Shown here piece by piece: positions 38,647 to 41,600 of a DNA stretch of 64,000 nt (position 1 is its first letter; each line of letters begins with the position of its first letter). The translations under genes were made by a program, and so were the position numbers. This DNA comes from Euglena gracilis (taxonomy: Eukaryota). The stretch spans positions 19,516,642 to 19,580,641 of the forward strand of contig CP154954.1 in assembly GCA_039621445.1 (NCBI GenBank). The letters are read 5' to 3'. The notes below the pieces were generated by a model that did no database searches, was not told the DNA's origin, and saw only the letters and a list, made by a program, of their open reading frames with translations.

Positions 38647-41600
38647 GTTCCTCAACGCCCCCCCCCCCCGCAACTTTTCTCCCTTTGCGTCCAGCCATTT
38701 TCAACTCAAACAACTGGGTGTGCGCCACACATTGGGAAGGCTATTTGTCGACGACAGGCATTAGATCTTTAAGGGGGGAATTGAACAACCGCAATTTTGT
38801 CGCAATTTCCCACAATTTTCTGCTTCTACAATTCTCCGTTTTCTGCAATTTCCGCAACTTTTTTTTCATTTTTTTCCCACAGTTTTTTCCCTTGCTGCAA
38901 ATTTTCCACATGACCAGACTTTACCTGATACCAACGTTTTCATGAAATTTTTTTGCCATTTTTGGATTTTTCACCGAAGAAATTCCATATTTCCATCCTC
39001 AGATTGTTTCCAAAAATTTACACAAAAAAACATGTTTTTCAATCTTTTTTTTGGAAACAATGTGAATAACGGCTCAAAATTGACGTTATGTTGCAAATTG
39101 ACCAAATTTGTCAAATCTAATTCTTCCCCGGCAGAGGTGCACTAGTTTCCAAAGCCGCTTTTTTCGCAATTTTTTTTTGAAAAATTTCCGCAATTTCCGT
39201 AATTTTTCCACAATTTTCCCGCAATTTTTTTTGAAGGGATTCTATGACAATTCCCCCTTCTCAGGTGCCTTGGCAAGCCAAGGAAGTTGCCCATCGATGC
39301 GGAGGAGAACCACCGCTTTGTCTCCCCAACGGGTTGGGTTGGCTTTCGATCAGCCCCCCCCCCCACCTCGGCCCATTCCTAATTCCAAGGGCCCCCGGAC
39401 CCGACGGAGGAGCAGCGGGAGGAGGTGGAGGCGCTGCAGTCCATCCTGGAGGACGACTTCGACTTCACGGAGGCGGCGGCGCTGCTGGTGCTGACCGTCC
39501 GGGCCCCTGGCACACGCAGGGCTGTTCGGGAATCCCGGCAACGCCATGGGTGGTGGGTGGGGGGTAGACCACCCCCCACACCCATCCCAGGGGGATCCGA
39601 CCCCCCCCCCACCACGCCTTTCTATTTCTGGCGGCGCCGAGTTTTTTTTGGCCAAACGTTTCTTTGAGCGAGCGCCGTTGCGCTGAAGGAGTTTTCTTTG
39701 CGTGGGTGCCGTGGCGGGTGAGTGGGTGTCCCAATGAGATGCACACCAGTCGTTCGTTTTTTGTCCAGGAAACCACGAGGGAGAAGAGGGGACTCCTTGT
39801 GCTGTTGGGTCCCCACCAGGGGACACCTTGAGTCCCGGTGGAGAATGCCAGCCCAGCGGCCACCTTCGAGTTCTTGAGAATGGCCATTTTCTGGCCGTTG
39901 CCGCTGTCGGCGCGAACTATGGCGTGAAACGGAGTGCCATTCCGGGCCGTCCCAGGCAGCCCTGGGCCCGCGGGTCAAGCTGTTGGTGCGATACACGCAG
40001 CATTACCCGGCGGAGCCCCCGAAGCTGGCGGTGCAGCGCCTCGAGGCGGGGCGGGCTGGGCGAGGAGGGCCCGGGGGGAAGGGCATTTGGTGAAGAGCTG
40101 CTTGGGTGGTCCCCGGCGAAGTTGTCGGCCAGACACCCTGCGGTAATGTGTTTTTGTGTTTTTGTGTTTGTGTTTGTGTGTTTGTGTTAATGTTTTGCGT
40201 TAATGTGTAATGTGTTTTTGGTCTGTCTTTTTAGGGTCGAAACAGGATTGGGTGGGGACTATTCCATCCAATCCGAGAAGGCAGAGGTGGAGTCGGTGGA
40301 GAAGAAACCAAAATGCATAATGTACAATGATGAACAAAGTAAATGATAATTAATTAATGTTGATTAAAGAATATTAATTGATATTTTATGACAGACACAG
40401 CAGGTTAATGAAAAAAATGATACTGAACAAAAGTAGAGCTCATTTAGGTTTTTGACCGGGAAAGAACAACTTGGGTGTGGACAGGGGGAAACACAATGCA
40501 ACTGCGTTTTGTGTCTTTCGCTTTAGGCAAAATTTGCCTTTGTTTTGGCAAAATTTGTCGTTTCTTTTAGTGTTTTTTTTGGATTTTTTGTTGGACAAGT
40601 TTTATAAATGCGATAAACAATTCTATTTGGCCCCAATTCTTATTTTGATTAAAAATTCTTAAAATTTCTTATTTTGGCCCCCATTTCCCATCAGCGCCAA
40701 AAATTTGTCATTTTTTTTGTCATTTTTGCATTTTTTTTTGGTTAGCAAAAATGCTTATTCTAAGGAAAATGAAATTTTTTCTCTGCAGAGACAGATATAT
40801 TTTCTGAACCTTCTCAGCACAAAGTTTTCACCTCGGGGGAGCTCCTACAGGATTTTACATGCAATTTGCCTTTGTTTGAGTTTTTGTGTTTATTTGCGTT
40901 TTGCATTTTTGCGTTTCCCCTGGTGTGGGTCTCTGGTTACCCGTTGAAACCAGGCTCTGAAGTCGTAACGTCGCTGACGAACGACCAACTTCATCCAATC
41001 GCGTTTTCTTCTCCTATTCCTTCCATATGGATTGATGCGTGCTGATCCAGACCGGCCCGCAACGCGACAACAACATCTCGCGCGAGCGCAGCATGCAGCT
41101 GTACCAACACCTGCGGGATGCGGCAGAGGAGCTGGCCCCCAGCGCCGGGCATTGGGGTCTTTGCCTGGCAGCAGGGGAGCGTGGTTACCGAAAGGCAGCG
41201 GAGCGGTCGGGGAAGGGGTTTCTGCGTTTTTTTGGGGACCTCACACTGCATCCTGTCTTCGGGGATCAGTCAAGGATGCGACAGTTGGAAGTGGCGGTTG
41301 TTTCTTATGGAGTTCAAATTTAAAAAAAAATTGGGCAGGATGTTTTTCTGGACAATGGCCGATTTCCGGAGGAGCCTTGTGCCGTGCGGCGTAGACATAT
41401 CACTGTGTCAGCAGCATTCCAGTGTATTCAACTGACCAACCCGCCTCAAACCTCAAATGCTTCAAAGTACCTCAAACAGTCCTGGAACATTGCAAAGCAT
41501 TCCTGGAACATCGCAGCGTCTTCAACAAAGCTGCCTACCTGAAATACCTCGAATGCGTGGTCCAATATCACATTTTTTGTGTGTTTTTATTTGGTTTTTG

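Follow-up and report, generated by a model that had tools for sequence, protein, structure and literature searches.

The window analyzed here is a stretch of 64,000 nucleotides (nt) from Euglena gracilis, positions 19,516,642 to 19,580,641 of the forward strand of contig CP154954.1 (NCBI GenBank assembly GCA_039621445.1), and all coordinates below are counted from its first base. Its plus strand carries a gene that appears to encode a GCN2-like eIF2-alpha kinase, with an RWD domain followed by a catalytic domain of the eIF2-alpha-kinase type, an order of domains that corresponds to that of GCN2. [quoted passage not shown] The 40 residues encoded upstream of the intron align with positions 1-22 of the Pfam RWD profile (E = 5.6e-4, 20.5 bits, below the 22.8-bit cut-off), and the 40 residues encoded downstream align with positions 51-72 (E = 0.01). 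Colinear Pkinase fragments lie on the plus strand at approximately 53.9, 56.9, and 62.7 kb, and for one kinase exon the best matches among solved structures are EIF2AK3, EIF2AK1, and GCN2. All of the single-exon domain scores fall below the family cut-offs, and the gene is therefore termed GCN2-like. At 64000, where the window stops, the kinase domain is still running or has only just ended, and any HisRS-like part would fall beyond the window. The features around the intron are as follows.

39390-39513, plus strand: upstream exon with the start of the RWD domain, ending in ...VRAPGT; in front of it lie a pyrimidine tract and the AG of 39388-39389.
39514-39969, plus strand: predicted nonconventional intron, 456 nt, phase 2; ACG-CAG ... 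CTG-GGCCC, then exonic G.
39970-40045 (3' end provisional), plus strand: downstream exon with the middle of the RWD domain; Pfam RWD match and a coding signal of high G+C content at third codon positions (GC3).
39517-39964, plus strand: element core of 448 bp, bounded by and including the inverted repeats; putative decayed MITE of the E1/E2 family.
39517-39532, plus strand: 5' terminal inverted repeat, CAGGGCTGTTCGGGAA.
39949-39964, plus strand: 3' terminal inverted repeat, complementary to the 5' arm at 12/16 positions.
39559-39610, plus strand: subterminal palindromic unit of the family (G-run, TCGAC, C-run), present in two degenerate copies that were located by alignment to the family.
39509-39516, plus strand: left 8-mer GGCACACG, proposed left copy of a target-site duplication; first 5 nt exonic, last 3 intronic.
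39965-39972, plus strand: right 8-mer GGCCCGCG, proposed right copy; first 5 nt intronic, last 3 exonic.

The borders of the predicted intron are not those of a GT/GC-AG intron, as its first bases are AC and its last bases CC. A code for euglenid nonconventional introns has been defined genetically, namely 5'-N3-CDG ... CH'G-N5-6 with an exonic purine next, in which the donor spacer is strictly 3 nt, 5 nt are preferred at the acceptor, and the combination of CAG-CTG and a 5-nt spacer is favored (Nomura et al. 2025, PMC12501133). The predicted intron has ACG-CAG at 39514-39519, CTG-GGCCC at 39962-39969, and G at 39970, so that the borders chosen in the original prediction, which had been made from the letters of the window, agree exactly with the experimentally defined code. 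All of the strings quoted in that prediction are likewise present in the window, although the "ends" that it gave, CAGGGCTGTTCGGG (39517-39530) and CCCAGGCAGCCCTG (39951-39964), are those of the inverted-repeat core and not those of the spliced intron: The former begins 3 nt inside the intron border, and the latter stops 5 nt inside it.

Read-through of this stretch meets three in-frame stops and the stretch must therefore be removed, and because both RWD exons lie in one genomic frame, the removed length must be divisible by 3. Removal of 39514-39969 (456 = 3 x 152) keeps the RWD frame and joins ...VLTVRAPGT to the downstream RWD residues. The junction can be slid by 1 nt, in that removal of 39513-39968 gives an identical mRNA (39512/39969 in place of 39513/39970). 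When the frame-keeping candidates between the RWD exons were enumerated blindly, 39514-39969 was the best CAG-CTG candidate with a 5-nt spacer, having a stem of 9/12, and in predicted RNA folds 39517-39531 pairs with 39950-39964 in both the minimum free energy (MFE) and the centroid structures. Asymmetry of G-U pairing between the two strands was examined for traces of selection acting on the stem in RNA. With G-U pairs counted, 16 of the first 20 positions pair on the sense strand and 15 of 20 on the antisense strand, a result that does not discriminate. The intron contains stops in the sense frame, and no domain-like open reading frame (ORF) was noticed in it or in the family elements.

The original prediction had named a lack of related copies as evidence that would speak against it, and a BLAST comparison identified two such copies within the window.

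10970-11674: E1, intact MITE of the family, 705 bp; inverted repeats 16/16; perfect 8-bp duplication CGCTTGGG at 10962-10969 and 11675-11682.
44443-45077: E2, second copy of the family, 635 bp; 5' terminus CGG, not CAG; in non-coding sequence inside the kinase gene.

E1 and E2 are 79.5% identical over 621 nt, the inverted repeats of E2 agree at 15/16 positions, and the E1/E2 termini are CAGGGCAGAACGGGAA and its exact reverse complement. The similarity of the intron to these elements starts at intron base 3, that is, the base before CAG, and the BLAST matches fall at 10969-11068 (E = 2.5e-8), 11588-11660, 44445-44490, and 44986-45063. Local alignment of the 5' 200 nt of the intron with E1 scores 65, compared with 19.9 +/- 3.2 in dinucleotide shuffles, of which 0/500 reach 65; the corresponding alignment with E2 scores 42, also reached by 0/500 shuffles. 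At no more than three mismatches, CAGGGCAGAACGGGAA has five matches in the window when 0.49 are expected, and the fifth of these is the 5' end of the intron, which is identical to the family terminus at 13/16 positions. The 5' 23-mer of the intron agrees with E1 at 15/23 positions, better than all 102 other CAGGG-anchored 23-mers in the window, and its 3' 23-mer agrees with the E1/E2 3' terminus at 17/23, which is reached by none of the other 120 CCCTG-anchored 23-mers. At position 7 each arm of the intron differs from the family, one by A to T and the other by T to A, and because the two differences are complementary the pairing is kept. The intact 14-nt form of the subterminal unit is confined to E1 and E2 in the window (five matches versus 0.06 expected). 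If the intron is counted, the family has three members of 448-705 bp within 64 kb, all at unrelated sites.

We considered E1 itself as an exon-splitting intron and rejected this possibility, as E1 sits approximately 100 nt downstream of a conventional GT donor (CAG/GTACGG at 10868) of an FHA-domain exon. This exon, at 10670-10867 on the plus strand, encodes the first half of the domain (Pfam FHA positions 1-30, E = 0.0026) and ends at that donor, and E1 lies in the intron that follows.

The two 8-mers that flank the element core in the RWD exons, GGCACACG and GGCCCGCG, are identical at 6/8 positions. In the original prediction each had been compared with the spliced exon 8-mer and found to agree at 7/8. 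This is numerically true and yet uninformative, since the exon 8-mer takes its first 5 nt from the left copy and its last 3 from the right, and mismatches are always charged to the intronic bases. As a null distribution we used all 88,843 CAG...CTG pairs that lie 60-6000 nt apart in the window, for which the flanking 8-mers agree at a mean of 2.0 positions. A value of 5/8 is reached by 3.4% of these pairs and at least 6/8 is found in 0.6%, giving an empirical chance of 0.006 for the intron and a probability of approximately 3% once the five introns inspected in the original prediction are corrected for. Taken alone, then, the 8-mer match is suggestive and not decisive. By the same measure E1 has 8/8 and E2 0/8. 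For the intron, register 0 is the best of 13 registers, as all others from -6 to +6 give at most 4/8, and two differences in 8 positions are comparable in extent with the divergence of 23-27% that separates the intron 5' part from E1 and E2.

Duplications of this length are not peculiar to E1. A scan of the window returned 253 CAG...CTG pairs with inverted repeats of at least 12/16, and the flanks of these agree at 6/8 or better in six cases, the intron among them, versus 1.5 expected and perfectly in four cases versus approximately 0.03 expected. Pairs with inverted repeats of 11/16 showed no enrichment (4/621 versus 3.7 expected, with 46914-47897 as one of the four). A control with displaced flanks was not informative, as it is confounded by tandem repeat arrays at 58-61 kb. 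All of the elements with perfect duplications start with CAGGG and finish with CCCTG, and besides E1 they include three unrelated elements with duplications of 8/8, to which two with 7/8 can be added.

52820-53322: unrelated MITE, 503 bp; inverted repeats 16/16; perfect 8-bp duplication GTTGGATC; between two kinase exons.
21206-21854: unrelated MITE, 649 bp; inverted repeats 15/16; perfect 8-bp duplication CTTAACAG.
22117-22375: CAGGGGTTTT-type MITE, 259 bp; inverted repeats 13/16; duplication 7/8 (CAGCAGAG and CAGTAGAG).
46914-47897: outer element of a nested pair; inverted repeats 11/16; duplication 7/8.
46956-47814: inner element of the nested pair; inverted repeats 12/16; duplication 8/8, of low complexity (CCCCGGGG).

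E1 and the elements at 21206-21854, 22117-22375, and 52820-53322 are mutually dissimilar by BLAST, in a comparison from which 46956-47814 was left out. The proposal that the intron arose from an inserted element with an 8-bp duplication thus finds support in three observations, in that related copies share its ends, the duplication of E1 is perfect, and an 8-bp duplication is general for the CAGGG...CCCTG elements of this window. At 46914-47897, where each of the two elements has an 8-bp flanking repeat of its own, one seems to have inserted into the other. A further stretch of 5.9 kb, at 29379-35287, is bounded by a CAGGGCAG-ended pair (CAGGGCAGTCC...) inverted at 14/16 positions and has flanks of 4/8. 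Its first 8 nt are those of the E1/E2 family, an agreement that may be due to chance.

Five further introns of the kinase gene were predicted on the basis of reading frame, stem, and recovery of kinase motifs, a procedure in which their flanks played no part.

41137-41739, plus strand: predicted intron; stem 11/12, flanks 3/8.
50237-52284, plus strand: predicted intron; termini CAGGGCAGCCG... (CAGGGCAG...), stem 11/12, flanks 4/8; removal restores the kinase glycine loop GEGAYGRV.
56127-56978, plus strand: predicted intron; stem 8/12, flanks 1/8; removal restores IHS/KGVVHRDL.
57071-61584, plus strand: predicted intron of 4.5 kb with repeat arrays; termini CAGGGA.../...TCCCTG, stem 8/12, flanks 5/8; removal restores a 10-residue protein stretch.
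63313-63962, plus strand: predicted intron; termini CAGGGCGG.../...CCGCCCTG, flanks 5/8, in a C-rich context.

With the intron at 39514-39969 they make six predicted introns, which match at 24 of 48 flank positions, and cross-pairs of their left and right flanks average 2.3/8. When the right flanks are permuted among the six, only 4/720 arrangements reach 24, and over 13 registers the sum is highest in register 0 (24), the next being register -3 (22). The original prediction had pointed to similar remnants at two of these introns, and the 8-mers it quoted are indeed there, each pair agreeing at 5/8: ATCAAGCC and ATCAGGAT at 57066-73 and 61580-87, and CCGTCGCC and CCCCCACC at 63308-15 and 63958-65. 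Its statement that introns starting at 36122 and 56127 show no remnant holds for the latter (1/8); for 36122 the value of 2/8 applies to the best candidate 3' partner only, as this partner is not fixed. Its explanation that introns lacking a remnant may be older insertions is plausible. Within the intron at 57071-61584, the region 57600-61450 contains approximately 15 copies of a unit of approximately 200 bp, in both orientations and with 72-89% identity, that alternate with long (CA/TA/TG)n microsatellites.

Based on these findings we favor the hypothesis, which we consider probable, that a MITE of the E1/E2 family inserted into the RWD exon, came to be spliced as a nonconventional intron, and then decayed, leaving a duplication remnant of 6/8. 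The event may have proceeded as follows. A non-autonomous cut-and-paste DNA transposon of the type at 10970-11674 and 44443-45077, with CAGGGC... and ...GCCCTG ends and subterminal palindromes of G-run, TCGAC, and C-run, would have landed in the RWD-encoding exon of the GCN2-like gene and duplicated an 8-bp target, approximately GGCACGCG. In the pre-mRNA the inverted ends of the element would pair and bring the borders together, and the euglenid nonconventional system would cut 3 nt upstream of CAG and 5 nt downstream of CTG. The removed segment would then be the element plus exactly 8 nt, and at the mRNA junction the left copy would contribute 5 nt and the right copy 3, with the frame that preceded the insertion regained. 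Since 3 + 5 = 8 is the length of one duplication, splicing of this kind restores the mRNA as it was before the insertion. Once the insertion was fixed, the intronic bases, three in the left copy and five in the right, would be free to drift while coding constraint held the exonic parts. Decay would have left the interior and the 3' half unrecognizable, the inverted repeats at 12/16, and one intronic change in each copy of the duplication, that is, the 6/8 seen today.

Several observations weigh against this hypothesis. The flanks of E2, CCCCCCCC and AAGGGGGG, carry no duplication. Exact-pattern scans for the family terminus gave no match in metagenome, prokaryote genome, or viral contigs, and the family is known from three members. 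Inspection by eye of the listed long ORFs of the window, including 29379-35287 and made without a family-library scan, recognized no transposase, and a protein search of the 40-residue exon against longer proteins gave no match at E <= 0.01 and thus no transcript-derived orthologue. Only the last approximately 23 nt of the 3' 100 nt of the intron match the family, and the gapped local alignment of these 100 nt scores 16, which 154/500 shuffles reach. The interior of the intron is not significantly similar to E1 and E2, so that homology is limited to the 5' part of approximately 100 nt and the termini. Of the same tenor are three further points that we take up with the alternatives to which they belong, namely the frequency of comparable pairs in the window, the way in which the other introns were predicted, and a second candidate junction.

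The alternative that fares best accepts a genuine nonconventional intron, perhaps even one derived from a transposon, and attributes the 6/8 match of its flanks to chance or to composition in GC-rich coding sequence. Both flanks are indeed GC-rich, and the match is the best among at least five introns picked in the original prediction, with the corrected probability of approximately 0.03 given above. Two predicted introns of the same gene have flanks of only 1/8 and 3/8. Furthermore, inverted repeats of 12/16 occur in 161 pairs of the window, of which two reach at least 6/8 when approximately one is expected. By its repeats and flanks alone the intron is thus unexceptional, and the case depends on a position that was specified beforehand in combination with independent homology. 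Nevertheless, we consider coincidence unlikely. The relatives of the element make exactly 8-bp duplications and a remnant in register 0 is therefore expected, and register 0 is the best of 13 both for the intron (6, others at most 4) and for the six introns summed. Chance would also have to account for the composition-matched permutation test, in which only the 4/720 noted above do as well, a test that itself relies on introns predicted from frame, stem, and motif restoration.

A second alternative is that splicing uses another nonconventional junction, in which case the 8-mers would not straddle the real borders. The enumeration of frame-keeping candidates returned one such junction, 39497-39976, in which a CGG...CCG motif is combined with a spacer of 6 nt and the stem reaches 10/12, and CGG-CCG derivatives as well as 6-nt spacers are reported to be functional (PMC12501133). 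An exonic CGGGCCC just upstream of the intron can pair with GGGCCCG at the 3' border; this pairing is the basis of the junction, which would drop 8 codons. We give this alternative little credence: The predicted hairpin turn VRAPGTRV would be lost and LLVLT fused directly to KLLVRY, the code favors CAG-CTG with a 5-nt spacer, the MFE and centroid folds both use the CAG/CTG stem, and homology to the MITE terminus begins at CAG. Finally, it is very improbable that an older intron of other origin later received an E1-like fragment, a scenario to which the restriction of family resemblance to the 5' approximately 100 nt and the last approximately 23 nt and the occurrence of nested insertions in the window (e.g., 46956-47814 inside 46914-47897) would lend some color, given that the first core base, at which the homology sets in, abuts the 8-mer and lies exactly 3 nt inside the border demanded by the code, and that both termini match the family, so that the fragment would have supplied both splice-defining ends by accident. 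We conclude that 39514-39969 appears to be a real nonconventional intron with a predicted junction, and that it is very probably a decayed MITE with hAT-like ends and duplication length that has retained a 6/8 duplication.

This intron belongs to a known kind and is an unusually informative case of it. Like the euglenid nonconventional introns described previously, it lacks GT-AG borders, has CAG at +4 to +6 and CTG at -8 to -6, is followed by a purine at the start of the next exon, and has a stem of inverted ends that joins its borders and a junction made slidable by short direct repeats (Milanowski et al. 2014, PMC3935182; Nomura et al. 2025, PMC12501133). In anatomy there is no difference from these introns, and the present case adds nearby mobile elements, with intact duplications, that can be identified as a donor family. 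The origin of such introns from MITEs is itself a published hypothesis. When it was proposed, its authors noted that euglenids had no known transposable element (Milanowski et al. 2014, PMC3935182), and it was still repeated as a hypothesis in 2024-2025 (PMC11282704, PMC12501133, PMC12621601), with a review of 2024 already drawing CAG and CTG as inverted repeats and mentioning border repeats that resemble target-site duplications ('TSD-like'; PMC11282704). In a full-text literature search that took in neither supplements nor subscription journals, we found no paper that names a donor family for a nonconventional intron, connects these introns with hAT, or points out that the two spacers add up to the length of the duplication. 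The locus combines an intron that can be traced to an element family by its ends and subterminal repeats with fresh relatives and look-alikes that carry perfect 8-bp duplications in the same 64 kb, and it provides, in 3 + 5 = 8, a numerical link from the length of the duplication to the splicing code that experiments have defined. It thus gives concrete support to the old idea that nonconventional introns began as transposon insertions and makes this hypothesis directly testable.

A parallel exists in the introners of Micromonas, Aureococcus, dinoflagellates, and Fritillaria, which are likewise non-autonomous DNA elements with inverted ends that sit in exons and are removed from the RNA, the duplication helping to define the removed segment (PMC11282704). 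According to the same review, introners mostly use the (modified) spliceosome, with duplications of 3-5 nt or co-opted GT/AG, whereas the intron described here has a CAG/CTG code and a duplication of 8 bp.

We tentatively extend the argument beyond this locus, in a proposal that may well prove too broad. The euglenid nonconventional code could be the exact inverse, at the RNA level, of the insertion of one class of transposon, with CAG and CTG as the terminal triplets of CAGGG...CCCTG repeats and the spacers of 3 + 5 nt as the 8-bp duplication. Most nonconventional introns, which make up >70% of introns in E. agilis, would then be decayed hAT-like MITEs, and the machinery that excises them would have co-evolved with that transposon system or been recruited from it. 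If the code is the inverse of insertion, new insertions into exons, in either orientation, would be born as precisely removable introns.

With respect to superfamily, hAT elements have 8-bp target-site duplications and inverted repeats of 10-25 bp (PMC3942097). The elements of the window share the 8-bp duplications and have inverted repeats of 12-16 bp or more, and both lengths are thus as in hAT. Their terminal CAGGG also appears to resemble hAT ends such as that of Ac. No hAT transposase or autonomous partner was noticed when the listed ORFs of the window were inspected by eye, without a family-library scan. On the basis of ends and duplication length we call the elements hAT-like. We also considered Merlin, since the Merlin elements of Euglena gracilis make 8-bp duplications (PMC8101967), and rejected it: All Merlin inverted repeats begin with 5'-GG (PMC8101967), whereas the termini in the window are CAG... 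and directly abut the duplication.

Two minor observations concern the gene as a whole. A short ORF of high GC3 at 37615-37704 on the plus strand, 1.7 kb upstream of the first RWD exon, begins with ATG and encodes a Cys-x2-Cys ... His motif; it has no Pfam match and could be either an exon located upstream or a small gene of its own. The large introns of the gene also contain long perfect micro- and minisatellite arrays at 45200-46240 and 50460-50580, of the ATGT/ACAT type and with a 15-nt unit that encodes VWCGV repeats in one frame.

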